Below the pieces are notes generated by a model. That model ran no database searches. It saw only the letters and a program-made list of their open reading frames with translations, and was not told the DNA's origin. From IMG/VR virus record IMGVR_UViG_3300031760_000010, positions 1-64,000 of that record: 64,000 nt of DNA; one strand, 5' to 3'. Shown piece after piece: positions 7,629 through 61,261 of the stretch. The stretch's first letter is position 1, and each line of letters opens with the position of its first letter. Both the position numbers and the translations under genes were made by a program. The DNA is from a virus (taxonomy: Duplodnaviria > Caudoviricetes).

Positions 7629-10600
7629 TTAGTTATATTTGAATTTACTCATTGAGTTACGACCCATAGCTGCTCCAAGTGTCATCTCTTGAAGTGCATT
7701 CTGGAATTGAGTATCCGCAACCAGTGCCGTCTTAAACTGCTCATAATCCTTAACACCCGACAGATTAAATACAAAGCTGATATCTCCAACCGTATTCTGT
7801 ACCTGTGAAGTGTTGTTAGAAATAATGGGCTGAGCCATAGATTCACTGATCATCTTAGGAATATTCATCTGAGCAATCTTCCAAAGATTCTCAGTCATAG
7901 CGTTGGTAAACACTTTATCACCCGCATCCAAACGAGTTAAGACTGCTCCGTCTGATTTACGATAAATCAATTCCTGGCCATCCTCTTGAGTATAAGCTGT
8001 TTGAGAATGAGTTATGTTACGAGATCCACTAGCATAACCAGCCACACCAAGCATACCTTCTAAATCATTAGCTGATTTCTCAAGGAAGTTCTGCTTCTTT
8101 TTAGGCACATAGACCACATGACCAGTGTTGAAGTTCTTCCACACTGACACAGTTTTACTGGTCATTATCTTCCGGTAACCCTGAGCCGCCAACATAGCTT
8201 CAGTACTCTGTTTGGCATTAGATCCAGCAGAAGTACCCGCACCCGTATTTGTACCGCCTGTATTACCCGTGTTATTCTTCTTAGCGGTTTCTTCAGCCAA
8301 CCTTCGCTGGCGTTCGGCCTCTTCATCTTCTTGTCTCTTATGAGCAGCTGCTTCTTCAGCCGCTTTCTTAGCCGCTTCTTCAGCTTCTTTCTTCTTACGA
8401 GCTGCTTCAGCTTCTTCATCCGCTTGCTTCTGTAAAGCATTAACAGTAGAACGAGCCTGCTCTAAAGCATCCTTGAAGTCTTGAGAGACCAGTTTCTTTT
8501 GAGCATCCGTTAAATTCGCAAATGATTTTTCAATACTGGCGATGCTGTCCTTATCCTGTAAAGTAATCTTTGAGGGATTAATGCCTTGCATCATTGCCTC
8601 TACGGTATTTGCAGCTTGCTGGTCCATTTGTGTTTTAATCAGCGCATCAAACTTATCCAGAATCAAATCAAGGTCTTTATGCAACGTACCCTCTGTTCCC
8701 AGAGCAGACTTTAATTCTGGAGTGATTGTACCATCAATTGCAGATAAAGTAGTAACCGTATCTGTAATGTTCGTACCAGCAGTCGTTACATGGTCACCCA
8801 AATGCTGAACATCATCGCTGAGTTCTGCCTTGGCATCCATGATTACCAGATCCCGTTGCTTCATATAAGAATCGATCCACTCCTCAAAGTTAGAAGATAA
8901 GTCGTCTAACATTTGCTGAGAATCAGATAGATATTTTTCATACTGTTGATCAGACCGATTGTCTCTGGCTTCTTTCAGATCTGCACGAAGTTTCTGAATC
9001 CTGGCAACCGCCTCTTCAGAGGTATTACCCTCATACGCCGCTAATTGCCGTTCTAACTTCGTAATATTCTGAGTAGATTCTGAAATCTGCTTTTGATAAT
9101 CATATGCTTCTTTCTCGGCATTCTTAAGTTCTTTGTATTTACTGATCGTCTTATTGAGATAGGAGAGTTGTGCCTCATAACCCTGTCTCATCAAATCAAT
9201 AATTGCCTGCTTTTCAGACTCAGCAGCTTCCATTGAAGCATATCTGGCATCAATTAACTCATAAATTCTATCTTGGATATTTTTATCAGTTGCATCGTAT
9301 TCACCAGATTCAATCTTCTTATATACGTCTGCTAACTCATCACCATACTTTTTGGCTTCGGCAATATAATATTCAAATGAGGTATTCCGCAGATCCAAAG
9401 CGGCCATACCATATTTAGTAATACCACCTTTATTGTCTGTGTCAAAGAATTCTTCATTTTGGATCATATTCAGGTAATGATCAATCTCTGTCTGCAACCG
9501 CTTGACACGAGCCATACCATCATCAAACTTTGTCCAATCCAACTCACGAATAGAGTTGGAGAGTTCTTTGATATCAGTTGTCAGCTCATTGATTTCGTTA
9601 ACAATGCCGTTAATAACATCCTGAGCCTGATACCATTCTGTATCACCGACACGAATCTCATTATTAGCTACTGCTTTCGCCAGCGAAGCCTGAGCATCAA
9701 TGTAGTTCTGCTGTAAGACTGCAAGGTTACGAGTGTCCATCTGAATCTGGTCAGTATAATCTTCAACATTCGTATAATGCCCATGTACGCCAGCACGATT
9801 AATCATCGCCTGGGACACTGTATTGTGCTGATTATTGGCCTGACGGTCATTCTCACCCTGAGTCTTAATATTATTGACTTGTTGTAAAGCACGAGTAGCA
9901 TTCTGCTGACGAATCGTTTCTGCATCAATCTTTTGCTGAGCCTCCGCCTGACGACGATGCTCAATAGCCTCGTTGTAATTGTAGCAAGCTTGATAGAACG
10001 CGAGGTCTACATAACCCTTCTCATAACCTTCGGCTAATTTACCAAGGCGAGTCGCGCCGATAGCTTCCCCTTTATTTACATTGTCAATTGCTTGTTGCAT
10101 ATAAACAGCATAAGGATTGTTTTTCGGCACAGAAGCAGCTTTTATAGGTCGCGCATAGGTTTCTACGGCATTTCTATAGAAATCCACTTCTTCCTGATTC
10201 GATTGCAGAATCTTCTTCGTTGTGTCAATTTGCTTTTGAATCAAAGCATTCTGCGCTTTGAAACCAATAGCATTTTCTAGCTGATTATCAAAATAAGAAA
10301 TATCATTATTTGCGGCTTCTTCGGCGTTCGCATAAGTCTGAGACTGCAAATTGAAATATTCCGTCTGATTCGTTGCATAATTTAATGCCTCTTCCATTCT
10401 GGCGGTTTCCAGGTTTTCTACGCCTTGGTTGTAAGCATATAGCTTGGCGTAAACATTTGGATTATTATTCGCAATCGTTTTTAAGATATCATCTGGTATT
10501 TGTTTATTCTGATCAATATAAGATTTGGCAGAATCTAAAGCCTTCTTATAATCGCCGCTAGCCTTTGTCTGCTTCTTTAAAATAGCTTGAGCGTCTTTTG

Positions 10601-39298: not shown

Positions 39299-39372
39299 AG
39301 TCTTATGTCAGATTCGAACTGACCCCGCCAGTTTGGAAGACTGGTATGCTATACCGCTAACACTAATAAGAC
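39299..39372 (-). tRNA. tRNA-Gly(TCC)
   Basis: Cloverleaf: acceptor GTCTTAT/ATAAGAC, anticodon arm CCAGT-CTTCCAA-ACTGG, T arm GTCAG-TTCGAAT-CTGAC, discriminator T. CCA not encoded. Confidence 0.88.
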
Positions 39373-41772: not shown

Positions 41773-44700
41773 TTATCCAGCCGCCGATTTTTTACTTATA
41801 AAACATGCTAAAAAGCACTTTGAGTTAACTTCGTAGAGGGTCTTCAATAATAAAGCTTTGTTATAGTTAGTTGATGAAACCATCTTTGCGATGTTACTTT
41901 TTACCCCTGGAGTAATCACAAAAGCTCTATTAATTAATTTAGAAACTAAGCCAACATAATTTTTAGATAAATAAATTTGGCGGATATCTTCTATAAGCTT
42001 TTCAAAATCTTCCGCCAACATCATAAATAAATCTTCATCCGTTGGATCATCAGCCACTCCATGAGATAACAGTTTCAAAGAATATTTTTCAATCATCTTT
42101 TCAACTTTTCTTGACACCCTATGATGTTCCGTAAATTCATGTTTAATAAAAAAGTCCTGAATTGGAAGAGTGGAAGTAGTTGGATTATACGACTTTGGCT
42201 TTAATCTATATACATAATTCATTGGACATTTTAGTTGCTTATTCATTTTCTTCTTATCAAATTGCGGTCTTATCAATCCCCAAAAAGAAGGGTACCCACG
42301 TTGGTCAATTAGCATTGATTGCTTAATCAATTTTATTTCTTCCATTATATCAATGTCATATTTTCTTTTAGCATTGTCAATAGCACATTGAGCAAGAACA
42401 CTTAAAATACAAACATTATCATATAATTTCTGATCATCATAATTGTATGTATAAGACAATGCTATCTGTGCCAAGTTGCTGGATTCACCTATTGCCCGCT
42501 GGCTGGCCGCAAGGTTATTATCAATTCGCGCAAAATCTGCTAAAGTATTATTATAATGGTTAGCATCTTTGGGTATATTATTTACTATAGTAGGATATTC
42601 CCGATAAAATCTCCGGGCACTATCCACTACAGACGGTTGATTAGTAACGTATAGCGAATCTGAATCTTGATCTGCCTATTTGTTTCGTCCCAGGCTCTTT
42701 ATCCTGGGCGGCTCCGGGTTTCCCCGGAGTGTCGGACTATATCTTCACCTACGACTTTACGTTTAGGTGTTCGGCGCTCGTGGATGAATTATCGCTTTAC
42801 CCGCTCGTCATCTAGTCTCTAAGCTTTCCCATCTTTATTCGGTATTGGATGGGCTTAGTAATTGATTGGCTTATGTGTGTGATAATAATTAATTAGCCAT
42901 TTCGAAATAATAATTGTGATATAATTTCTGCTTTTTTGCCGCTCTTGATATGCAAGAAATCATACTTGATATTTTAATAGATAGTTTGCATTGCTCTTTA
43001 ATCCATGCGCAAGCATCCATTATCGTATCTGTGGTTAGTATATAATTTTTGTTTTGATCATATATATGAACTCGTTTGGCATTGGGATTTTCTTTTCCGG
43101 TTTGATGAGATAGGCGGTTTTTTGTTTTCGCTAACCACTGTTGATACTTTTCATCCGACATTCGTTCTTTTGGGGAAACCCCAAACATCGCGTTATTAGC
43201 ACCCGATGAAGTAATGCTGTATCGCTGTTTTAATTCGGCTACTTCTTCAGGCGTCTTTAACTCCCAATAATTGATTCCATAGGCAGGATTCTTTTCCCCT
43301 TTCATGGCCTCAGAATGTTGAATACACCATTCTTTGCTATGCACCATCCCCACACTACCATCTCCTCCAAAAGTATGGTTGGTTAAATGCCCTGGTTCAT
43401 TCTGACGATTATTATAACCAATAATATCAATCCCATAGCCTTTATTAAAAACATAATCCATAACAGTTTCATGTTCTAGTCGGTATGCTTCTTCTTCAGA
43501 TAAATTATCATAAAGAATATTTACACGCATTCCCACTTTATTAACAATTCTATCATGATGTTCGTTCCGTCTAGTATTGTAAGCTCGTTTCTTTCGTCCT
43601 TTTCCCACATAAAAACAAGTATCATTATCTAATCTAATATGCTCATATACACAATATCCTTGATCTTCTATATATTACACCTCCTTTTTAATTTAACTAT
43701 TATCACACACACTTAGCGTTCCAATTTTCACCGAATATTTTTTACGCATATTTCTATACGCTGGCCCAGTATGTTAAGCCGTTATTCCGATCCTGTGCAT
43801 CCGTTCCAATCATATTTAATGCTATAATCAATTTCCCAAATGTGAAATACCTCTTAAACCGTTCATCATAATGATTATGTAAATAATCCAGATTATTTCT
43901 ACTATTGAAAGGGTTCCTGAATCCAGCAAGATATTCACCATCTTCAAATCGTTCCGTATAACATTGAATTGCACCGTCTTCAATCATCAACGTATCATCT
44001 TTATGATAATCATCCCCGGCTGAAGCCAACAACATAGCATACGGAGATCCAACAATTACAAGATTGTCTGCTTGTTGAATAAGTTTACCTGTCTTTACAT
44101 TTTTTACATACGTACGAATTATTTCTTTTTTTCTTTCTCTAAAATAATCACAACGTATGAATTCCGGGTTATGCTCAACTAATGCGACAAGTACTTCATA
44201 ATCATTTGCAAAATTAGTATTTCTTCTCAAGTAATCTACAAATACAGCATCATTCCGCTTTAATTGCTGTATATAATCCAGAGTCTCTTGGCATATATTC
44301 TCCATTAGGTCTATATCTAATGCATTAACCATCTGATAGCTCATACGCTGTACCTCACCCAATTTACTAGGATGAGCTGTCTTCACTATACCAAACTGGC
44401 AGCCATTTTTTCGTACCCATTCAGACCAATATTCAAAATCAACATGAAACTTAAGCCACTTAAGTGCGTTTTCAGTGGTAATCAATTTTACATTCCTTGC
44501 TAATATTTTATGACCCCACATGTCTTCAACTTCAGCAGTTTCATATTGATCACCAAAATAATCTTGATAGAAGAGTTGTATATTGCTTCGAAAGGCTGCC
44601 ATCTTACAGAAATGATGTCGTAAGAGAATATAACCCTCCCCCCATTCCGGGAAAATGCTCTCATCAATTAATGCCTGTCCATCAAATAATGTATTCTTTA

Positions 44701-51940: not shown

Positions 51941-51971
51941 ATACCGCCGACTTCGGCGGTATTTTTTTTTT
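51941..51971 (+). terminator. Intrinsic terminator after the sigma-like gene
   Basis: ATACCGCCGA-CT-TCGGCGGTAT hairpin followed by T10. Confidence 0.88.
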
Positions 51972-52190
51972 GAAAAAAATTGGTTTTTTCTAGTCTTGAT
52001 TGATAGTTATAGTGTAAGGATTGATTGAGAATGACATAGAAATATGTCATTAGAAAAAACCAAAGATAATTCTATGTTTTTTCAAACATGGAATTATTTT
52101 TCAAATTTTTTTGAAAAAAATTGGTTTTTTCTAGTCTTGATTGATAGTTATAGTGTAAGGATTGATTGAGAATGACATAGAAATATGTCA
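51965..52190 (+). repeat. Perfect 85-bp direct repeat (51965-52049 and 52106-52190)
   Basis: Identical copies 141 nt apart, each ending in a TGACATA-GAAA-TATGTCA hairpin. Confidence 0.95.
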
Positions 52191-52617
52191 ATCATTCATT
52201 CACTTGCAAGTGCGGTTAGTTAGAGTCGCAACCGCTTTTCCGAATGACTTAAAATGGACTTTGTGAATGAACGGTTGACATTGGGAAGTGTCAAATCCTC
52301 ATCAATCTGCGCACACCGCATGGTTAGAGCGAGTCTCGGCGGACAGGGGCGAAGCTCAGACGAATCTAGCCAGACTTTGGATGACCGTCTTAAAATGTCA
52401 CCCCGCTTGTTACCGCAGACGTTAAGGCGGTAACCGCCAAACCCGGCAGGCTGTAGAAATGTTCCGGGTTGCTTTTCGGTGGATCGTTGACCCTGAGAGG
52501 AGTCTCTCAGGAACCGATGAACGTCTTCTTAGTCTTGCACCCTTGCAAATTCTAGGGCATAGTTCTAGGACTTGCAAGGATGCAAGACTGCATCCTAAAA
52601 ATAATATTTTTAGGAGG
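52158..52617 (+). ncRNA. Candidate large structured RNA / 5' leader (~460 nt)
   Basis: No credible ORF. At least ten stems and a 7-bp pseudoknot visible by eye (see findings). Confidence 0.6.
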
Positions 52618-52624
52618 TCATATT

Positions 52625-53584
52625 ATGACGTACAACAACATGAAGAAGGCTGAGCTTGTGAACCTGTGCAAAGAGCGGAATCTTCCCAGTAATGGCAAGG
52701 TTGCCACGCTGATTGAGCGCTTGGAGACTGCAGACCGTAAGGCTGCTGAAGCTGCCAACGCCGGGATTGGCGTTGGAGCGAACTCCAAGAAGTCCTATGC
52801 CGTGAACGCGATGCGTCCGGCAATCGTGGCGGCAAATGAGGCGAATAATCGCCGCGCCATCACTAAGGACGACGCCGCAGAAGCGGGCGTAGACGAGGAA
52901 CGCTGGCAGGAATGGAAAAAGTGGTGTGCAGATCTCCACGAGATCGTTTCCACCTACGTGGAGGCAAAACGCTCCAGATCTGCATCTTCTGCATCTACTG
53001 AGATGCGCCAGACGTACCGCCAGAAGATCTACCCGGCATGGAGAACCATGCTGAAGGTAGGGGAGGAAAACATTTTTTCGCCGAAGATGTACCTGCGAGA
53101 GGATGACGTAGAGTCCCTGATCGGATTCTGCGAAGACTTCGTGGGGACTGCAATGGGAACTGAGCAGGCCAACGCAACCGAAGGGAAGTTCCGCAAGTTG
53201 GTGGAGACCCTGATCGGTTGCCGCATTAAGGGATGTGAGACGCTTCCTGCAAAGGATCGCGATCTGATCATCCTGTACGAGAGCGCTCTGCGCTCCAAAG
53301 AGAAGGCTGAGAAGGCACTGAACGGAGACGGAAAGAATATCGTGGGTATCATCCGCGAACTGCAGGCTGCTGAAGTGCAGACTGAGAAATTCGTAACGTC
53401 TCTGCGGGAACTGGGACTGACCGAAGAGCGCATCGCCGAGGTGACGGCGCCGTTCTACGTGAAGGTAAAGGATCTGAAGGAAGCTAAGAAGCGTTCGGAA
53501 AAGGCTCTGAAGAAGGCCGAAGAGACGATCGCCGCGAAGAAAAATGCGGCGCAGGAGATCTACGATCGCATCAAGAGCCGCTAA
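52625..53584 (+). CDS. SAP/HeH-domain protein with C-terminal coiled coil
   Basis: 'YNNMKKAELVNLCKERNLPSNGKVATLIERLE' matches the SAP domain consensus. ATG 52625 after AGGAGG. Confidence 0.75.
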   Translation: MTYNNMKKAELVNLCKERNLPSNGKVATLIERLETADRKAAEAANAGIGVGANSKKSYAVNAMRPAIVAANEANNRRAITKDDAAEAGVDEERWQEWKKWCADLHEIVSTYVEAKRSRSASSASTEMRQTYRQKIYPAWRTMLKVGEENIFSPKMYLREDDVESLIGFCEDFVGTAMGTEQANATEGKFRKLVETLIGCRIKGCETLPAKDRDLIILYESALRSKEKAEKALNGDGKNIVGIIRELQAAEVQTEKFVTSLRELGLTEERIAEVTAPFYVKVKDLKEAKKRSEKALKKAEETIAAKKNAAQEIYDRIKSR

Positions 53585-53593
53585 ATTAAAACC

Positions 53594-53617
53594 GGGGAGG
53601 TGAAATACCTCCCCTTT
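53594..53617 (+). terminator. Hairpin / weak terminator after the SAP gene
   Basis: GGGGAGGT-GAAAT-ACCTCCCC followed by TTTAT. Confidence 0.6.
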
Positions 53618-53619
53618 AT

Positions 53620-53672
53620 GGACTCATGTGCAAGCCTCCCCGTGGCGAGTCTGGATTCGAACCGATTGCACA
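53620..53672 (+). ncRNA. Minimal HDV-like self-cleaving ribozyme #1
   Basis: P1 GGACUC/GAGUCU with G1-U wobble, P2 UGUGCAA/UUGCACA, P3 GCC/GGC, L3 UCCCCGU, P1.1 GG-CC, vestigial P4, J4/2 CCGA. Confidence 0.8.
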
Positions 53673-53719
53673 AGAAGGGAACCTTATGGTATAATGCTCT
53701 GAGGTAAAGGAGGGTTATT

Positions 53720-53872
53720 ATGCACACAGTATCTGTTTTCTATGACGGAGAGTGGTTGACGTATGAAAACTGCAGCCCGCTCACCACACTTTGCATGATT
53801 AACGACGCTTTAGCGCAGGGGCTGCGTGTAAAGCGTGACGGCAAAGAGATCGTAGAATCTTCTTACACTTGA
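53720..53872 (+). CDS. Small hypothetical protein (50 aa) between the two ribozymes
   Basis: Not in the ORF track. MHTVSVFYDGEWLTYENC...ESSYT* with RBS AAGGAGG and an upstream TGGTATAAT extended -10. Confidence 0.7.
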   Translation: MHTVSVFYDGEWLTYENCSPLTTLCMINDALAQGLRVKRDGKEIVESSYT

Positions 53873-53884
53873 AACGACCAATGT

Positions 53885-53950
53885 GTCCCCAAAAGGGAAG
53901 CGTCCACGTCGCGGGGGATGGGCAACGGGAATTATCCCGGCTGATTTCCT
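53885..53950 (+). ncRNA. HDV-like self-cleaving ribozyme #2
   Basis: P1 GUCCCC/GGGGAU with G1-U, P2 AGGGAA/UUUCCU, P3 GCG/CGC, L3 UCCACGU, P1.1 GG, J1.1/4 GCAA, P4 CGGGA/UCCCG, J4/2 GCUGA (putative catalytic C53941). Confidence 0.85.
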
Positions 53951-53958
53951 AGAAGGAG

Positions 53959-54387
53959 GTGTGTCATATAGGCGAGAAAGGAAAAATACTATCCCTTTCC
54001 AATGAGGATCTTTTAGAGACGCTCCAGAAGAACAACCCGGAGTTACTCAAAAGTGCTTTATCCAAAATTGAGGAGGGCCTCCGTGAAGAATCGGAGGGGA
54101 CTTGTTTCGTGCCCGCCAAGGCAAAGGAATTTGAAAACCTATGCGTAGAGCTTAGGGAAATCGTTTCCGCCTTGGAGGGCGAAGTCATCGCCATTACTCC
54201 TATTGGGAGAAAATGTTTACGCCATTATATAGACGTATGCATCCCGGATGAGGCAGTAATGGATGCCGAAACGTTCCAGCGTTTTTTGGAATGTCTCAGG
54301 CATTTCAATTATTGCCATTGGAGTATTGAGGATGGCGATGACTTAATTACTCTGGGATTGTCCTTTAGTGGGATTTACCAGAAGTAG
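53959..54387 (+). CDS. Hypothetical protein
   Basis: About 140 aa. RBS position suggests an ATA start at 53968. Confidence 0.6.
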   Translation: MCHIGEKGKILSLSNEDLLETLQKNNPELLKSALSKIEEGLREESEGTCFVPAKAKEFENLCVELREIVSALEGEVIAITPIGRKCLRHYIDVCIPDEAVMDAETFQRFLECLRHFNYCHWSIEDGDDLITLGLSFSGIYQK

Positions 54388-54491
54388 GGTACGGAAATCA
54401 TTTTATTCCAGACTAGAACACAGGAGCTACGGAAACGAATTCCGACTCCTGTGTTTTAGTATGCAATAAAATGCAAAATAAGGAGGAACCA

Positions 54492-54734
54492 ATGGAAACT
54501 GAAACCAAGAAACTCACCGCAACCCGGCAAAAAGCTATTGCGACCGCAATAGCTTTATGCTATCCTGTTTCTGTGGTCTCCAAATTAACGGAGGCAACAA
54601 CGGAAACGGAAATCAATCGCATTATGACGACAGCCCGCCATGACGCGATCAAGGCAGACGAATTCCGGACACGTTCCCGGATCGTCTGCAACTTCAAGCC
54701 CCATTCTCGTGGGGTTGTGGTATTTGCAAGATAA
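54492..54734 (+). CDS. Hypothetical protein
   Basis: 80 aa, RBS AAGGAGG. Confidence 0.6.
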   Translation: METETKKLTATRQKAIATAIALCYPVSVVSKLTEATTETEINRIMTTARHDAIKADEFRTRSRIVCNFKPHSRGVVVFAR

Positions 54735-54772
54735 CGGAAACTAATGCACAAATTAAAATTAGGAGGGAAACT

Positions 54773-55381
54773 ATGTGCTACAATGGAAATTTTAACGTTT
54801 TATTCAACTCTGAGCAGTTCTGGGCAGAGTCCGAAATCTTCTGGGATCACGCAGATGACGGAGACCTTCTGGAGTGGCTTGCGCCGCGCCGAGAGAAGGA
54901 AAACGAGATGGACGCAATGGAAACACCTGCAAAGGTGATGTTCCGTGGTAACCGAAACAGCCAGTACCGCTATCGCGTGATGAAGCGCGAGAAGGCGAAA
55001 TACGGCAAGACAAAAGCAGATCGCCGTCAGGGACGGAAGGATTATCGCGACCTGTGCCGGGAGATGCACGAGTTCCGTGTATACAATGCCGGGGACAAAA
55101 AATCCCGGAAGGCAAAGGAGCAGTTCGCCTCCGCCCTGGGTGACGAATGGGACGTCACCCGGGGACAGGCAAACAACATTGCCGCAACGGAAGTTGTGGC
55201 CGAAGATTTTGTAGAGTCCCGGAAGGCAGAGCTGAAGGCAGTACAGGAAGAGATCCGTAAGGTAAACCTGAAGTGGTCCGATCTGCTGGGCCAGATGATG
55301 GCTCTGGAAGACGAACTCGCTGAACTCGCTCCCGGTTGGAAAGAGTGGGAAAGCTACAAAGCAAAGGAGGAACGGAGATGA
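54773..55381 (+). CDS. Hypothetical protein
   Basis: 202 aa, RBS AGGAGG, coiled-coil C-terminus. Confidence 0.65.
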   Translation: MCYNGNFNVLFNSEQFWAESEIFWDHADDGDLLEWLAPRREKENEMDAMETPAKVMFRGNRNSQYRYRVMKREKAKYGKTKADRRQGRKDYRDLCREMHEFRVYNAGDKKSRKAKEQFASALGDEWDVTRGQANNIAATEVVAEDFVESRKAELKAVQEEIRKVNLKWSDLLGQMMALEDELAELAPGWKEWESYKAKEERR

Positions 55382-55797
55382 AAAAACTCATCATCAGACT
55401 GGCTCTGATCGCCAGCCTTGCGTCTGCAACGGAAGCTACCGGGATCAGTCCCTATAGCTTCTACAAGAAGCTGGTCAAGAAACAGAAAATCGGTGTGGTA
55501 AGGGAATACTATACCGATAAATTGACAGGAGATATTCTTCGTAATCGCGGTGATGACATCATCGTGGAACGGATCATCGGCAAGGTAATTGACAACAAGG
55601 GCAATGGAAAAGTCCTTGGTGTTGAGGATTATGACTATATTTCCTACAACGGAGTCAATGGAATCTGCAAAGGAGATATAGTCATGACGGTGTGTATCTA
55701 CGCACCGAACAGTGACGGCGAAGATGATATAATTGAGCGGTTTGATTATATCATCGACCGAAAGGGAAAGAAGGTGAAAAACGCGAAGAATAAGTAA
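55378..55797 (+). CDS. Hypothetical secreted or membrane-anchored protein
   Basis: Signal-peptide-like N-terminus MKKLIIRLALIASLASA. Confidence 0.6.
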   Translation: MKKLIIRLALIASLASATEATGISPYSFYKKLVKKQKIGVVREYYTDKLTGDILRNRGDDIIVERIIGKVIDNKGNGKVLGVEDYDYISYNGVNGICKGDIVMTVCIYAPNSDGEDDIIERFDYIIDRKGKKVKNAKNK

Positions 55798-55812
55798 TAC
55801 ATAAATTAAAAC

Positions 55813-55906
55813 AAATCCTGCTCAGTACTGGTGTACCGCTAGTGAAACGAATGACGGAATAGCTTGCGTCTGGGTTCAATTCTCAGATGAGTGGTTCTGC
55901 GGATTT
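55813..55906 (+). ncRNA. tRNA-like element
   Basis: T-arm (T)CTGGG-TTCAATT-CTCAG(A), acceptor-like stem CTGCTCA/TGAGTGG, outer stem AAATCC/GGATTT. No canonical anticodon arm. Confidence 0.5.
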
Positions 55907-55932
55907 ATCGCAAAGCAAAGGAGGAATTATCC

Positions 55933-56142
55933 ATGAGCAGCAAGGAAAAGGAACTGAAAGAACTGGAGTGCTTCGAACAGTACTTCGACCCAAATCGCCA
56001 ACCTTTGGTTGACGAGTATTTCTGCAAGGTAACCCGAAGGGAGACGATCCTGCGGAAGATCAAGAACGCGATTCTTGATTTCATCTGCAATCCGTTTGTG
56101 CTGATGATGGCCGCTTTTGTGGGATGCATCATCTACGGCTAA
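55933..56142 (+). CDS. Small membrane protein
   Basis: 69 aa with a C-terminal hydrophobic helix, RBS AAGGAGG. Confidence 0.6.
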   Translation: MSSKEKELKELECFEQYFDPNRQPLVDEYFCKVTRRETILRKIKNAILDFICNPFVLMMAAFVGCIIYG

Positions 56143-56210
56143 TTACAACTTAATATTGGTAATATACAAAATAATAAACACATAGCCAACAAGGCAAAGG
56201 AGGAACAATT

Positions 56211-58175
56211 ATGTTCAACGTAGGCGACATTGTAACCGGTATTGATTCTAAGCAGTATTGCATTACGAACGATGCAGCGATCTGCAGAGTTATGGCGGTA
56301 GGGATCGCTGGAAATCCAGACAAAATCAAGGTAAAAGTTCTGGAACGAACCGATGGAGAGTATGAGGAGAGTGTCGGGGACATTTATCCGGTAGACGCCC
56401 GGCACTTCAAGTTGGTTGAGGGGTATCAGGTAGTAAGCGAGATCCCGGAACCTGAATATGATCTGACGCCAGTGTCGGATGAGATCATTGACCGAATCGC
56501 AAGTGAAATGGCAGTATTTTTTGATAAGTACGGTCATAGGCACTCCATGGAGGGTATCAGGGAAATCCTTCGGGTGTATCTGGAAAACAACATGCCGCTG
56601 ATCGGCATCCTGCGTCAGCATCCGAATTGGGATGAAGAAAAGCTGGCAATCGTGTTCTCCAAGGGATACGTCCGCAGCGTCCAGTATCAGCAGGTAGTGG
56701 AGTTTACTGACTGGTTTCTTGCGAAGAAAGTGGAGCAGATCAACGCAAACGAAGTCAAATACTGCGGTAAGTCTTACCGTTGGTGGATGAGCCAGTATCG
56801 CCAGTTAGACCGAGCTGTAGATTTCATAAGCAATCTTGAGAGTGGCTTTTCTGCTTCTATTTCGTTCAACGGAATGGAAATCGATCCCAGACAAGAAAAA
56901 AGATTTGCCAGAAAAGCAATCGAAAGTCTGGATAATTTCCCGACTGTTACGGGAAAATATGTAAACTATACTTACTTTGCGGATTACGACAAGGTAAAAT
57001 CTTTCCGCCAGGTACTTCTGAATTATTTCGGTCAGGAAGATCCGAGTACCATTTCTCCGGTAGCCACAAAGGAACTGACGGATAAAATTAACGAGATTTA
57101 TCCCGGTATGGCTGTAGAGGGACAGAAGATCTCCCGGATCGTAGGGAAAATCGGCAAGCTCCTTGGGTTCGATCAGATTAAGGAAAAGTGGAACGGTCGT
57201 GACTACGGTTGGAACAGACAGTTCGCCATGTTCGCAGATGCTATTAATCCACTGGAATATACAAAGTATACTCTCATTTCCTTAAATCCTATGGATTTCC
57301 TGACCGCCAGTTTTGGTCACGGTTGGGCGTCCTGCCAGACTCCTGATTACCAGAACTTAAGAAATTGTTCACATACTTACGAAGGCATGTACATGAGCGG
57401 TACTCTTAGCTACATGCTGGATGGGGTATCCATGGTATATTACACGGTAGATGCCGATTACAAGGGAGATGAGTTCTGGAAACAGGATAAATCACAGCGG
57501 TGCATGTTCCACTACGGAAACAACGTACTGGTTCAGGGCCGGGTTTATCCTGATGGCAGAGATGGTGGAGACGGAAGTCTTGCTTCTCAGTTCAGGGCGG
57601 TCATGCAGGAAGTAATTACTACCTGTACAGGGAAACCGAATCTGTGGACTCTAAAGAAGGGAAGTGGTTCTATCAGAGAATTTACAGAATCTCATGGTAC
57701 CCATTACAGAGATTACCAGCAGTATAATGATTGCACGATCTCTCTGCTCAAGGGATGTGAGCACAAGATAATCCATATTGGTCACAATCCGATCTGCCCG
57801 GAGTGTGGAAGGGAACACGAAATCTGTGGTCAGTTAACCTGTGATCGCTGTGGTCGTACAAAATACTGTAACCATTGCGGATGCGAGGTTGATCCTGATT
57901 TTGCAATCGAAATTGACGGCAACGTATTCTGCGACTCTGAATGTGCTGAAGCGTCTGGTTATGTGAATACTACCGATGACGGATGGCATGAAAGGGAAAG
58001 TTGCTTGTATGATGACCTGGAAGATGAATGGTACTGGGATTACGAAAGCAGTTACGTGGTAACGGAAGATGGTCATAGTTATATTGACGAAGACAACGCA
58101 AGGGAGGCTGGTTATGCCCAGAACGCAGATGGCGAATGGGTTGATGCTGCCAGTCTGAGCGAGGAGGCGGAATAA
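56211..58175 (+). CDS. Large hypothetical protein with Cys-rich C-terminal zinc-finger repeats
   Basis: 654 aa. Central 'SLNPMDFLTASFGHGWASC' and 'QGRVYP' motifs, multiple CxxC, acidic tail. Confidence 0.7.
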   Translation: MFNVGDIVTGIDSKQYCITNDAAICRVMAVGIAGNPDKIKVKVLERTDGEYEESVGDIYPVDARHFKLVEGYQVVSEIPEPEYDLTPVSDEIIDRIASEMAVFFDKYGHRHSMEGIREILRVYLENNMPLIGILRQHPNWDEEKLAIVFSKGYVRSVQYQQVVEFTDWFLAKKVEQINANEVKYCGKSYRWWMSQYRQLDRAVDFISNLESGFSASISFNGMEIDPRQEKRFARKAIESLDNFPTVTGKYVNYTYFADYDKVKSFRQVLLNYFGQEDPSTISPVATKELTDKINEIYPGMAVEGQKISRIVGKIGKLLGFDQIKEKWNGRDYGWNRQFAMFADAINPLEYTKYTLISLNPMDFLTASFGHGWASCQTPDYQNLRNCSHTYEGMYMSGTLSYMLDGVSMVYYTVDADYKGDEFWKQDKSQRCMFHYGNNVLVQGRVYPDGRDGGDGSLASQFRAVMQEVITTCTGKPNLWTLKKGSGSIREFTESHGTHYRDYQQYNDCTISLLKGCEHKIIHIGHNPICPECGREHEICGQLTCDRCGRTKYCNHCGCEVDPDFAIEIDGNVFCDSECAEASGYVNTTDDGWHERESCLYDDLEDEWYWDYESSYVVTEDGHSYIDEDNAREAGYAQNADGEWVDAASLSEEAE

Positions 58176-59182
58176 TGAAAAACAAATCTACATTCCCGGA
58201 ATTCATTGAGATCTGCAAGAAAACGGAAAAGGAATTGAAAGTATTCCTTGAAGGCGAACTGAAAAAGTATTATACGGAAGTCATCAACGCAAATGGCTTC
58301 CTGTATGCCAAAGCAAACAATTGTCCGGTGCTTCTCACAGCTCATATGGATACAGTTCACAAGGAAACGATCAAAGATTATTACGAGGACATTTCCTGTG
58401 GTCAGCATATGATTTCCTCACCTCAGGGAATTGGTGGTGATGATCGGTGTGGAATCTATATGATTCTGCGAATCCTTAAGGAAACGGATATGAGGCCGGC
58501 AGTACTGTTCTGCGAGCAGGAAGAGATCGGCGGTGTTGGTTCGAATAAGTTTTGTACGACCGAGCATCTGGAAGATATTAAGAAACTGAAGTTCTGTATT
58601 GGACTGGATCGTACCAATGCAAAAGACTTGGTATTCTATGATGATGACAATGAAGAGTTTCAGGATTTCTGCGAGAAGGTAACTGGATATAAAACTGCTT
58701 GGGGATCATTCAGTGATATCAGTCATATCTGCCCGGATGCAGGAGTATCTGGTGTGAATATCTCATGTGGATATTACAGAGCACATACAGTTCAGGAATA
58801 TGTCATCATGGAGGAGATGATTGAAAGCATCAGTAAGGTAAAGGAGTTAATGCAGGAGGCAAACAAAGAGGAAACTGAACAGTTCGAATTTGTCCAGACG
58901 CCGTACAAGGGATACCTTTGGGAACGCTATGATGCGTATGATGATTATTACAATCATAACTACAGTTATTATGGCAGATATTACGGGAACTATAACAAAT
59001 CCAAAGCACCTGTGAAAATGAATCCGGGATATGAACTGTATATCCAGTTTGTAGAGGAGGGAGTACACAAAGAAGATTGTATTGACGGAGTAAGTGAAAG
59101 CGACTGCTGGCTGACGTTTTTTCTGGATCATGCGTCTGTATGCTTTAATGATGTGTTAGATTGGGAGGGATACGACATCTAA
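58175..59182 (+). CDS. M20/M28-like zinc peptidase/hydrolase
   Basis: AHMDTV, GGDDRCG, EEIGG, SD and YYRAHT metal-binding motifs. Confidence 0.82.
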   Translation: MKNKSTFPEFIEICKKTEKELKVFLEGELKKYYTEVINANGFLYAKANNCPVLLTAHMDTVHKETIKDYYEDISCGQHMISSPQGIGGDDRCGIYMILRILKETDMRPAVLFCEQEEIGGVGSNKFCTTEHLEDIKKLKFCIGLDRTNAKDLVFYDDDNEEFQDFCEKVTGYKTAWGSFSDISHICPDAGVSGVNISCGYYRAHTVQEYVIMEEMIESISKVKELMQEANKEETEQFEFVQTPYKGYLWERYDAYDDYYNHNYSYYGRYYGNYNKSKAPVKMNPGYELYIQFVEEGVHKEDCIDGVSESDCWLTFFLDHASVCFNDVLDWEGYDI

Positions 59183-59290
59183 TATAGATACATAATACAA
59201 CCGAAATTAAAAATAGAAGTTTACAACAGAAAGCAAAAATAGGATTTGGAGAATTGTTTTAGAATTCATATATAAGAAAGGAGTAACATT

Positions 59291-59863
59291 ATGGCAACAA
59301 TGGAAACGACGACAGAGCATATCCGAGACAACATCTATAAAACTCTTATGTCTCCTATCTGGCAGATGGATAAAGTAGATAAATGCCCGCATAGAAAATG
59401 GAATGATTTGGTTATCTGCTATAGATATAAGATTGATGATGAACATTGTGCATTAATTACAAAGGAGATTGCGGACCAGCTTGAGATGACAGAAGAAGAT
59501 CTGTATCAGGGAAGCAAAACAGACCATGTCATGATACAGGGAATGTTTGATGTACTTACTGCTTATGGTTGTGAATACACTGGAGGTGCAAGTGAAAACT
59601 TTTTAGTGGTTAACCCTAATACTTTGCATGGTGCATCTAGTATTTTGAATGAAAAAGAATTTAAGGAAAAAGTCAAGGCAGATTGTTATCTGATTCCTTC
59701 TTCTATTCATGAATGGCTGTTATTAAATCCGGCTGTTATTGATACGGATTCTGTCAAAGAAATGGTTAAAAGTGTTAATAATTCTGAAGTCGATCCAAAA
59801 GACAGACTGAGTTATAACGTATATTGGTACGATGCTGTTAACGGTATGATTACGATTCTGTAA
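59291..59863 (+). CDS. DUF5688-like protein
   Basis: 'YLIPSSIHEWLL...EMVKSVN..EVDP.DRLS..VYWYD' pattern. Confidence 0.7.
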   Translation: MATMETTTEHIRDNIYKTLMSPIWQMDKVDKCPHRKWNDLVICYRYKIDDEHCALITKEIADQLEMTEEDLYQGSKTDHVMIQGMFDVLTAYGCEYTGGASENFLVVNPNTLHGASSILNEKEFKEKVKADCYLIPSSIHEWLLLNPAVIDTDSVKEMVKSVNNSEVDPKDRLSYNVYWYDAVNGMITIL

Positions 59864-59924
59864 GTAATAAAGCAAATAAATAATATCACACACATACATA
59901 TTTAATTATCAAGGAGGTCATATA

Positions 59925-60878
59925 ATGAAGTTTAGTTTTGGTAAGAATGAGAAGGCTCTGAAGATTGTTGCTCCCGTTGCTGAGAAGTCCGCAGAAGAGA
60001 AAGTCCTGGATCGTCTGTTTGATCTTACGGAAAGTAATAAGCAGGTGATTGGTGGTAAGGTATACGCCAATATCCCGGTGGAACTGCTAAAGCTGGATGA
60101 GCTTTATCAGAGAACCAATACTTACAATCTGGATACGGTAAGACGCCTGACGCTGCAGTTTGATCTGAAGCAGATGGATACGCTGATGGTATCTGTCCAC
60201 GAAGAAGAGAAGCGGTATTACATCATGAATGGTATGCACCGTTTCTTGGCGGCAACTGCGAAGGGAATTGATGCACTGCCTTGTGAGATTCAGTTCATTG
60301 ATGGTGATGCAGAGACTCGGAGAAAGGCAGAAGCAAAGTATTTCATCTCTCAGCAGATTCTGGTGGACAAGATGAGTCCGCTTGATCAGCACAAAGCACA
60401 TGTTGTTCTGGGAGATCAGGAGTATGTTGATCTGGATGACATTGTGAATAACACAGACGGTATTCAGTTCAAGAAGAATCGCCACAAGGGAAGACAGCCG
60501 AAGGGAACTCTGACCGGGTATGCTCAGGCAGTTGCCATTACGAGTAAATACGGAAAGGAGCATATGCAGAATGTATTTGACATTTTGATTGGTGCTCATT
60601 GGAATGAAGTCGGTACTGGTCTAAGCTATTATGCACTGCGCATGGTTTCTGATGTACTTGCGGCTCATAATACTGCGGAAGTGAAAGCAGAGATCACCAG
60701 AGTACTTCGCAAGTGGGATCCGAAGCTGTTCCAGGCAGTTGCTTGGAGTCATTACACTACGAGAACCCAGGGCAACGCAAATGCACTGTTCCTTGAAGAC
60801 TACGTTTGCACGAATCTGAATATTCCTCGTCTGATCGATAAGGAAGTAACGGAAAGATTCAATCCGAACGTTGCATAA
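59925..60878 (+). CDS. ParB/Srx-like N-terminal domain protein (DUF6551-like)
   Basis: 'YQR' and 'YYIMNGMHRFLAA', a variant of the ParB DGxHR motif. Confidence 0.7.
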   Translation: MKFSFGKNEKALKIVAPVAEKSAEEKVLDRLFDLTESNKQVIGGKVYANIPVELLKLDELYQRTNTYNLDTVRRLTLQFDLKQMDTLMVSVHEEEKRYYIMNGMHRFLAATAKGIDALPCEIQFIDGDAETRRKAEAKYFISQQILVDKMSPLDQHKAHVVLGDQEYVDLDDIVNNTDGIQFKKNRHKGRQPKGTLTGYAQAVAITSKYGKEHMQNVFDILIGAHWNEVGTGLSYYALRMVSDVLAAHNTAEVKAEITRVLRKWDPKLFQAVAWSHYTTRTQGNANALFLEDYVCTNLNIPRLIDKEVTERFNPNVA

Positions 60879-61018
60879 TAGGTAAATTAAATAAAACGGG
60901 GAGTCTGTATCACACGGGTACAGGCTCCCCGCCAATGAGTGGTGTAGTTAAATATTCATGACAATGAATGTTTAGTTATGTTACTCATTCACCAAGCATA
61001 TTAATGGAGGGAAACAAA

Positions 61019-61261
61019 ATGGAATCGAACAACAAGGAAACGGTAGAAATGATGATCACTTATTTTTTGAATGAAATTGAATTTCAGAAAGAGCTGATTC
61101 GTCATGCGAAACACGATATTGATGACGCAACGGAAGATGGTGATAATTCGAAACTTAGAATTCATACCAAGATGCTGCGGAGAAGAGAAGCGAAGATGAA
61201 TGATCTTCACCGGATGTTGGACTTTGTACAGAGGCTGCATTACGAAATGGAGGTACAGTAA
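61019..61261 (+). CDS. Hypothetical protein
   Basis: 80 aa, RBS GGAGG, coupled to radC. Confidence 0.55.
   Translation: MESNNKETVEMMITYFLNEIEFQKELIRHAKHDIDDATEDGDNSKLRIHTKMLRRREAKMNDLHRMLDFVQRLHYEMEVQ

Follow-up and report, generated by a model that had tools for sequence, protein, structure and literature searches.

Hepatitis delta virus-like ribozymes, long RNA duplexes and a tRNA-like cloverleaf in the early gene spacers of a cattle-gut phage

The gene block at 52.1-61 kb

We analysed the gene block at about 52.1-61 kb of a 64,000-nucleotide (nt) stretch of tailed-phage DNA, referred to below as the window, which comprises the first 64 kb of the IMG/VR virus record IMGVR_UViG_3300031760_000010 (122.6 kb, about 80% complete by estimate). 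DNA of this phage is contained in bovine gut metagenomes. The virion genes lie on the - strand up to about 50 kb and include one for a tape-measure-like protein of 4276 amino acids (aa), and the + strand carries all genes from 50.6 kb on. The products of the + strand block include a SAP-domain protein, an M28-type peptidase, a DUF5688 protein, a ParB-like protein (PHROG 1033, E 3e-8) and RadC, together with many proteins without a family match; the block is a typical early or anti-defence arm of a cattle-gut tailed phage. An earlier note on this DNA had suggested that a single early transcript runs through the block and is cut up by a mixed toolkit of RNA-processing elements lying in most of the longer gaps.

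Six of the nine gaps of at least 60 nt between 51.9 and 61 kb do contain a strong structure; those at 56143-56210, 59183-59290 and 59864-59924 contain none. The mixed toolkit was recovered as three kinds of element in one co-oriented block, namely self-cleaving ribozymes, a ribonuclease (RNase) III-type long duplex and a tRNA-like cloverleaf, each of them conserved in relatives with compensatory changes. Our comparisons are based on homologues of the SAP-domain gene (52625-53584, + strand; 319 aa; Pfam PF02037, E 2e-8), which were found with 35-62% identity and with the gene order kept in five distinct phage contigs, L003, L005, L008, L009 and L012. Megablast and blastn searches gave no close relative among GenBank phages, and a search of IMG/VR by protein patterns gave no relatives. 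In addition, four sequencing runs were compared as contigs; two of the four are labelled metatranscriptomic, are probably DNA and show no RNA ends. A search for RNA data sets with sequence from 52000-61100 returned none.

Two HDV-like ribozymes

The features at the two junctions that follow the SAP-domain gene, and at the next one, are listed below, with folding free energies (dG) and z-scores against shuffled sequences; HDV stands for hepatitis delta virus, bp for base pairs and ORF for open reading frame.

53594-53614, + strand: hairpin of terminator type, its G+C-rich stem 7 bp long and its U-tract weak (UUUAU; dG -16.4, z -4.2)
53620-53672, + strand: HDV-like ribozyme 1, a minimal form without P4, matched by a descriptor on the + strand only
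53666-53695, + strand: sigma-70-type promoter with -35 hexamer TTGCAC, an 18-nt spacer and a TG-extended TATAAT at 53690-53695
53720-53872, + strand: ORF of 50 aa from the ORF list, with a good ribosome-binding site
53885-53949, + strand: HDV-like ribozyme 2, with P4, matched by Rfam RF02682 at 53885-53951
54399-54473, + strand: long hairpin whose 15-bp core stem has an A-tract on its 5' side and UUUU on its 3' side (dG -36.9 on the + strand and -38.9 on the - strand, z -8.2)

Both HDV-like folds of the earlier note were recovered, the one at 53885-53951 by Rfam RF02682 and the one at 53620-53672 by the descriptor as well as by a model trained on this copy and its relatives. Ribozyme 2 gave 36.2 bits (E 3e-5) with RF02682 (HDV-F-prausnitzii) in a local search, 17 bits with the CPEB3 model and 42.6 bits with model R1; ribozyme 1 scored 51.3 bits with model R1, in whose training set its sequence was included. 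The nested double pseudoknot of HDV fits both copies, with P1 and P3 nested, P2 crossing P1 and a P1.1 of 2 bp (ribozyme 1: P1 53620-25/53647-52, P2 53627-33/53666-72, P3 53634-36/53644-46, P1.1 53638-39/53653-54; ribozyme 2: P1 53885-90/53914-19, P2 53895-99/53945-49, P3 53900-02/53910-12, P1.1 53904-05/53920-21 and P4 at about 53926-30/53935-39). Cleavage is predicted between 53619 and 53620 in ribozyme 1 and between 53884 and 53885 in ribozyme 2, and in each case the G at position 1 closes P1 (G53620-U53652 and G53885-U53919). The predicted catalytic residues, C53662 and C53941, match a C that is invariant in all copies and occupies the first position of J4/2.

The descriptor gave eight matches, all on the + strand, in comparison to 0-2 per shuffle when both strands were counted, and six of the eight were found in relatives, all in spacers near the SAP gene. 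Two further copies in L012 and a leader variant in L009 were added by the covariance model. When ten ribozymes were tabulated in a register set by hand, 173 of 174 helix cells (P1, P2, P3 and P1.1) were paired and the ten P1 sequences were all different, with a first P1 pair of G-U in seven copies and of G-C in three. A formal pair count on the model-fitted alignment, in which several rows are one column out of register, gave 73.5%, against 62.3 +/- 2.1 for shuffled partners (0 of 500 reached the observed value) and at most 50.5% for slid partners. The orthologues of ribozyme 1 after the SAP gene in L003, L005 and L012 have P1 strands that differ yet are complementary. Judged from sequence, both ribozymes are very probably genuine HDV-like ribozymes, and self-cleavage is predicted for them. 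The ribozyme model found no additional copies in the window or in two further related contigs (L021 and L036, see below), and Rfam scans of the block at E values up to 10 returned no other ribozyme family. The L009 leader variant (L009:9460-9538) carries a 30-nt insertion in L3.

The tRNA-associated subgroup of theta ribozymes, in which cleavage falls no more than 5 nt from a tRNA 3' end, was considered and rejected, as both ribozymes follow protein-coding genes; the only tRNAs of the window called by ARAGORN and Rfam are at 39299 and 41151 on the - strand. Beyond the window, the + strand at G000:C1:81100-85500 is dense in canonical tRNA-type T arms and acceptor stems and resembles a phage tRNA gene cluster. 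No HDV-like descriptor match adjoins any T-arm or acceptor element of 81100-85500.

Ribozyme junctions in the window and in related phages

Between the hairpin at 53594-53614, which itself stands after the stop codon of the SAP gene, and the predicted cleavage site of ribozyme 1 there are 5 nt. On the other side, the -35 hexamer of the promoter at 53666-53695, which in the promoter scan had 10 of 12 matches and an extended -10, is the 3' strand of P2. Since ribozyme 1 is wedged between the hairpin and a promoter that uses its last helix strand, it exists only on read-through RNA. The order of hairpin, ribozyme and promoter is common to the window, L003 and L005: in the relatives the hairpin lies 2-9 nt ahead of the cleavage site, in L005 it is a full terminator with nine T, and the promoters of L003 and L005 have identical hexamers with 16-18-nt spacers.

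The earlier note had proposed a comparison of related phages to see if the elements are interchangeable at the same gene junctions. Relatives do swap elements after the SAP gene, where a ribozyme is present in five of the six related phages. L008 has only a terminator and a promoter (TTGAAA-18-TATAAT) at this junction, and L009 and L012 have 580-830 nt of non-coding DNA with one and four ribozymes, respectively, and no ORF between. The four HDV-like ribozymes of L012 stand in a row within about 950 nt (L012:2009-2960), free of any ORF between them.

Ribozymes 1 and 2, at 53620 and 53885, are co-oriented and flank the 50-aa ORF. A tblastn search found no homologue of this ORF in the related loci, where the promoter runs straight into the gene for a 139-aa protein. 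In the window, there is no promoter in the 5 nt that separate ribozyme 2 from the ribosome-binding site of the 139-aa gene. The start of this gene (53954-53970) has a strong Shine-Dalgarno sequence, and the sole in-frame start codon at normal spacing is ATA (53968); among its homologues, that of L003 has no ATG (ATT or ATC), and those of L005 and L008 start with ATG and TTG, respectively.

The long hairpin at 54399-54473 stands after the 139-aa gene, at a junction where L003 and L005 have canonical terminators with a stem and a U-tract. The claim of the earlier note that most of the structures lack the U-tract of a terminator largely holds, but it fails here, as the core stem is followed by four U and flanked by an A-tract, and the relatives have canonical terminators. 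This core stem is followed by UUUU and then AGUAU, the hairpin at 53594-53614 by UUUAU, and neither hairpin passed the terminator rule of the scan on the + strand.

The leader of the SAP gene and its long stem

Three features lie upstream of the SAP-domain gene:

51965-52190, + strand: two copies of a repeat of about 85 bp, each with TATAGTGTAA (52008-52017 and 52149-52158)
52185-52624, + strand: structured non-coding leader of the SAP gene (z -4.6), with a long-range stem 52185-52203/52263-52281
52531-52589, + strand: hairpin of 27 bp and two 1x1 mismatches, located in the 5' untranslated region (UTR) of the SAP gene (dG -35.9, z -7.6), equally stable on the - strand

From its sequence, TATAGTGTAA is a candidate phage-type promoter, the second copy of which would start the leader RNA near 52160. 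In L003 and L005, a similar word precedes the leaders and follows the tRNA-like elements. TATAGNGTAA was not enriched across the window as a whole. The structured leader of about 460 nt was confirmed (52185-52625, dG -157.5, z -4.6), and its complement is structured too (z -6.1 on the - strand). The leaders of the relatives could be aligned only in short blocks, and RNAalifold supported one stem only, a stem-loop at about 52449-52480 that covaries in four phages, with 8 pairs, 5 of which have changes on both sides. The leader had no match to an Rfam family, and when scanned alone it gave chance-level matches to microRNA-type hairpins only.

Contig L021 is 96% identical to the window from 54527 past the window end, and upstream of this position it has an unrelated G+C-rich leader and a gene for a 335-aa protein. 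Because so close a relative carries a wholly different leader and first gene, the leader module is exchangeable. The breakpoint at 54527 is sharp and falls within a gene for an 80-aa protein, and contigs of two other runs break at the identical base; the alternative module of L021 also has about 50% G+C. In L012, the leader upstream of the SAP homologue (L012:750-880) matches positions 46-180 of bacterial 23S rRNA (56.8 bits, E 3e-14), and this rRNA-fragment mimic is absent from the window.

The three long hairpins of the earlier note, at 52531-52589, 54399-54473 and 60934-60989, are all present (z -7.6, -8.2 and -6.5). The first of them has the length expected of an RNase III duplex, i.e. about two helical turns or more. 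Its equivalents in L003, L005 and L008 are 26-28-nt inverted repeats that are 89-92% complementary and 289-359 nt apart, and the arms enclose an ORF of 84-104 aa with its own ribosome-binding site. The arm sequences vary among the three contigs, and their complementarity is retained. By analogy, the geometry of the stem corresponds to that of the rRNA-bracketing stems cut by RNase III, and this is the best support for the RNase III idea. The pattern of an ORF between the arms also fits the insertion of a cassette into, or its loss from, the loop of a hairpin at the DNA level. No further long-range stem was found at 51.9-64 kb.

Between the stem and the SAP gene there is also an A/U-rich hairpin (52594-52614, + strand), the 3' strand of which overlaps the Shine-Dalgarno sequence of the gene (52612-52617). 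Equivalents with changed A/U pairs are present in L003, L005 and L008, and the hairpin may be a translational operator or thermometer.

The tRNA-like cloverleaf

55819-55893, + strand: tRNA-like cloverleaf, found as the minimum-energy fold and in homologues with covarying stems

The tRNA-like fold of the earlier note was weak as a single sequence (z -1.4 and -0.8) and emerged as a real cloverleaf upon comparison with homologues. It consists of an acceptor stem (55819-25/55887-93), a D-like hairpin (55825-36), an arm (55839-43/55862-66) and a T arm (55870-74/55882-86); an 18-nt loop (55844-61) replaces the anticodon loop, the T loop is UUCAAUU, and there is no CCA end. Its tRNA traits are the 7-bp acceptor, with one mismatch in the window copy, the 5-bp T stem closed by G-C and a loop of the form UUCRANN. 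Homologues were found in L005 (8746-8821) and in contig L036 (230-307, - strand), and the 18-nt loop is identical in all three copies. In the comparison of the three, pairing is kept in 48 of 51 stem cells, and the acceptor, arm and T stems each show double changes; in the window and L036 copies the cloverleaf is the minimum-energy structure. A 127-nt unitig of sequencing run X3, corresponding to 55777-55903, is identical to the window, while the gene upstream is 8% diverged.

A genuine tRNA was considered and rejected: the loop has 18 and not 7 nt, ARAGORN called none when introns and a relaxed score were allowed, and the best Rfam tRNA match (tRNA-Sec) had 12.7 bits and E 4.8. Six tRNA-like elements of this and related phages were not called as tRNAs by ARAGORN with introns, relaxed scores and tmRNA mode; a relaxed run gave two doubtful calls, one of undetermined type for the type-2 element of L005 and one of tRNA-Gln, on the opposite strand, for its type-1 element. 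A hammerhead core suspected by eye in 55840-55895 was rejected as well, as its order and pairing did not fit. The 18-nt loop word had 24 metagenome matches, of which those in L021 (a near-identical phage) and in L036 and L037 are real and the others fall in coding DNA by chance.

A second type of tRNA-like element, with a perfect 7-bp acceptor, a T arm and an aberrant core, lies one gene earlier in L003 (12467-12537) and L005 (7927-7989), and hairpins topped by a T arm occur in early-gene spacers of L008 (at about 9139-9176) and L021. Given these additional elements, tRNA-like spacers are a habit of this phage group. RNase P and RNase Z may cut these elements.

Hairpins after the ParB-like gene

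60897-60931, + strand: perfect 15-bp hairpin without a U-tract, directly 3' of the ParB-like gene (dG -28.2, z -7.6)
60934-60989, + strand: G-U-rich hairpin of 26 bp, specific to the + strand (dG -21.8 on the + and -9.2 on the - strand, z -6.5)

The hairpin at 60897-60931 was not among the structures named in the earlier note. Two hairpins after the ParB-like gene are found in L003, L005 and L012, as in the window. The counterpart of the first hairpin occupies the same place in these three contigs and has an unrelated sequence; at the position of the second, L003 and L005 have a longer bulged hairpin with two compensatory pair changes between them. In run X3, the hairpin at 60934-60989 has a single change, which is in the loop, as compared with about 7% divergence around it. 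With its 26 pairs it is long enough for an RNase III duplex, and it is a second candidate target of the double-stranded RNA type.

Transcription layout and alternative explanations

The claim of a single early transcript was weakened. A conserved internal promoter follows ribozyme 1, and terminator-type hairpins stand before ribozyme 1 and after the 139-aa gene; the block is probably not one transcript in the simple sense. The opposite layout, in which each gene has its own promoter and terminator that explain the RNA ends, was found at one junction and not at the others. The promoter scan gave no promoter-like site after 54473, 55893 or 60989, and the genes beyond these positions therefore need read-through or processing. 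We favour overlapping transcription units, whose RNA ends would be set partly by termination and partly by cuts at the RNA level, and we regard this reading of the sequence as about evenly poised between right and wrong. Of these cuts, sequence predicts those by the two ribozymes only.

On this reading, ribozymes 1 and 2 would cut themselves off 5' of G53620 and G53885. The cut by ribozyme 1 would leave the SAP-gene message with a hairpin and a 2',3'-cyclic phosphate end and would uncouple it from the downstream unit, in the manner of a natural insulator or back-up terminator, while ribozyme 2 would part the 50-aa ORF and the 139-aa gene, and the message of the latter would begin with a 5'-OH inside a compact ribozyme fold. 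Host RNase III would be the likely cutter of the stems at 52531-52589 and 60934-60989, and host RNase P and RNase Z those of the cloverleaf at 55819-55893, which possibly is itself a functional small RNA. The hairpins at 53594-53614, 54399-54473 and 60897-60931 may serve as terminators or 3'-end protectors.

Several observations weigh against such RNA-level partitioning. The internal promoter and the terminator-type hairpins could alone account for most message ends, and an intrinsic terminator is the most likely identity of the hairpin at 54399-54473. In the phage record, which is about 80% complete, there is no gene for RNase III, CCA-adding enzyme, RNA ligase or RtcB, so that all cuts other than those by the ribozymes would depend on the host. 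Of the three long hairpins, only that at 60934-60989 is specific to the + strand. The statement of the earlier note that the G-U pairs work only on the + strand is right for this hairpin (-21.8 against -9.2) and, by nature, for the ribozymes, and wrong in three cases: the hairpin at 52531-52589 has -35.9 on each strand, that at 54399-54473 has -36.9 on the + and -38.9 on the - strand, and the leader has z -4.6 and -6.1, respectively. For the two hairpins among these, which form equally good folds on the two strands, a DNA-level role is possible. The window copy of the cloverleaf has three wobble pairs and two mismatches and could be decaying. Finally, ribozyme 2 stays below the gathering cut-off of RF02682 (36.2 against 44 bits), and ribozyme 1 barely registers with this family (a partial match of 12.5 bits).

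Possible, though somewhat doubtful in our estimate, is an arrangement of ordinary modular units with their own promoters and terminators and with stand-alone small RNAs, where the ribozymes trim RNAs or mop up read-through and nothing is partitioned. It is with similar reserve that we consider the corresponding roles of the other elements, in which the hairpins would be terminators or 3'-end stabilisers, and the cloverleaf and parts of the leader would be non-coding RNAs, e.g. decoys for defence nucleases directed at tRNA or rRNA. The conserved sigma-70-type promoter after ribozyme 1 agrees with modular units, as do the canonical terminators of relatives after the SAP gene (L005) and the 139-aa gene (L003 and L005). 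The 580-830 nt of non-coding DNA in L009 and L012, with up to four ribozymes in a row, resembles a device for small-RNA release, the 23S rRNA fragment mimic in the L012 leader points the same way, and the invariance of the tRNA-like loop in distant copies suggests a sequence-specific function of its own. However, such units leave the hairpins that end at 54473, 55893 and 60989 without any promoter-like site on their 3' side, the gene after ribozyme 2, with its ribosome-binding site, follows immediately and without a promoter, and the long-range stem of the relatives encloses a protein-coding cistron rather than a small RNA.

It is improbable that the perfect or near-perfect inverted repeats at 52531-52589, 54399-54473 and 60897-60931 act as DNA, either as sites for phage proteins (e.g. 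centromere-like sites of ParB) or as hot spots of cassette exchange. The equal stability of the first two on both strands would be accounted for, and so would the position of 60897-60931 next to the ParB-like gene, the look of an insertion or deletion that comes from a whole ORF between the arms in relatives and adjacent arms in the window, and the mosaic character of the region, with its sharp breakpoint at 54527 common to several metagenome contigs. Nevertheless, the arms change among relatives with complementarity kept, for which pairing is a simpler account than a sequence-specific protein site; the hairpin at 60934-60989 needs its G-U pairs and forms in + strand RNA only, and the ribozymes and the cloverleaf are left unexplained.

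Equally hard to believe is a single early transcript of the lambda or HK022 type, with the leader as a processive antitermination or regulatory RNA and the hairpins and ribozymes acting post-transcriptionally: the leader is long, strongly structured and right after a candidate promoter, one of its stem-loops covaries in four phages with a conserved loop, and several downstream hairpins have a weak U-tract or none, but the leader has no Rfam match, those of the relatives are largely unalignable, and a 96%-identical relative has swapped the entire leader module for an unrelated one.

The reading of overlapping units with termination and RNA-level cuts can be carried further, to a rumen phage group that sets its early RNA ends by interchangeable RNA modules and is largely independent of host termination. 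These modules would be a terminator-ribozyme-promoter insulator, cistron-bracketing stems for RNase III and a tRNA-like small RNA, of a family with an invariant 18-nt loop not described before, excised by RNase P and RNase Z, which could act e.g. as a decoy for host nucleases. In this extended form we consider the proposal unlikely.

Other features of the phage

The G+C content is 46-49% at 52-58 kb and about 35% in the rest of the window. The only cellular genome with a match to the SAP-domain family is that of Butyrivibrio sp. INlla21 (L039, NZ_FPCC01000002.1:245485-254201; 35% identity), which is a possible pointer to the host clade; a search of this locus with the ribozyme model found no HDV-like ribozyme. 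A group I intron at 42712-42963 (- strand), in the arm of - strand genes, reaches the Rfam gathering score (50.8 bits).

AAATTAAA is a word that comes back repeatedly in spacers along the + strand arm (53583, 54750, 55803, 59204, 60884 and 63811, + strand), either right after stop codons and ahead of structures or right ahead of ribosome-binding sites. Beyond 50.5 kb, 12 of its 25 + strand copies are intergenic, as compared with about 16% of the DNA there. In L003 and L005 it also stands on the flanks of the hairpin pair behind the ParB-like gene. A promoter element or a site of cleavage would be possible roles.

Comparison with known systems

The two ribozymes share with theta ribozymes, minimal HDV-like ribozymes of gut Caudoviricetes (PMC10879173), and with RF02682 the nested double pseudoknot, the G1 at the cleavage site and the C that opens J4/2, and with theta ribozymes also the form without P4 (ribozyme 1), the animal gut setting and a sense-oriented position within non-coding DNA. 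Kienbeck et al. 2024 (PMC10879173) reported that 42% of phage theta-ribozyme occurrences do not adjoin a tRNA and left the function of these open. Unlike the tRNA-linked theta ribozymes, neither of the window ribozymes abuts a tRNA; ribozyme 1 also differs in its place between a terminator hairpin and a promoter, with a P2 strand that is the -35 box, and both ribozymes score below the RF02682 cut-off. Most genomic self-cleaving ribozymes are without a known job, and this phage family provides a concrete context for theta-type copies that are not linked to tRNAs.

The closest precedent in layout is that of Perreault et al. 2011 (PMC3088659), in which hammerheads flank single prophage genes, anti-restriction genes among them, with cleavage both in vitro and in vivo. 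These authors proposed that long phage RNAs are cut to gene-length messages, and a 2019 review (PMC6765202) restated the message-cutting idea for twister ribozymes. As in those prophages, two self-cleaving ribozymes of the same orientation stand around one small gene in an early or anti-defence-type region, and the role proposed for them is the same. The class differs, being HDV-like here and hammerhead there, and the present block also holds a long duplex, a tRNA-like RNA and terminators.

The stem at 52531-52589 can be set beside the sites of RNase III, which processes T7 early mRNA and rRNA precursors. It resembles these in being a predicted duplex of at least two helical turns in a non-coding spacer, and in the relatives the duplex arms bracket a whole cistron like the processing stems of 16S and 23S rRNA. 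It differs from the T7 sites in that it is nearly perfect, whereas those carry internal loops, and in that it lies in a 5' UTR and not between two genes.

In mitochondria, polycistronic RNA is punctuated by tRNAs, tRNA-like 3'-end elements such as mascRNA are known, and for recognition by RNase P and RNase Z an acceptor stem with a T arm is the minimum. The cloverleaf at 55819-55893 is similar to these in having an acceptor stem stacked on a canonical T arm within an mRNA spacer. Unlike tRNAs, it has an invariant 18-nt loop in place of the anticodon loop, has no CCA and is passed over by tRNA finders. It may represent a new small RNA family, and together with the gene-bracketing stem it bears on the recruitment of host RNase P, RNase Z and RNase III by phages.

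RiboJ is a synthetic ribozyme insulator. In the window, as in RiboJ, a self-cleaving ribozyme upstream of a gene would strip off the upstream RNA context, the cleavage here being predicted; unlike RiboJ, the element is natural, the HDV type stays on the downstream fragment, and it overlaps a promoter. If the predicted cuts occur, the phage has a natural counterpart of engineered ribozyme insulators, and such phages would be able to fix message ends without relying on host termination.

Taken together, ribozyme-flanked prophage genes (Perreault 2011) and theta ribozymes not linked to tRNAs (Kienbeck 2024) are already published. What seems to be new is the terminator-ribozyme-promoter module, the tRNA-like RNA with a fixed loop and the co-occurrence of the three element types; if true, the combination of self-cleavage with two host RNases within a single gene block would be a new kind of phage RNA-processing system.

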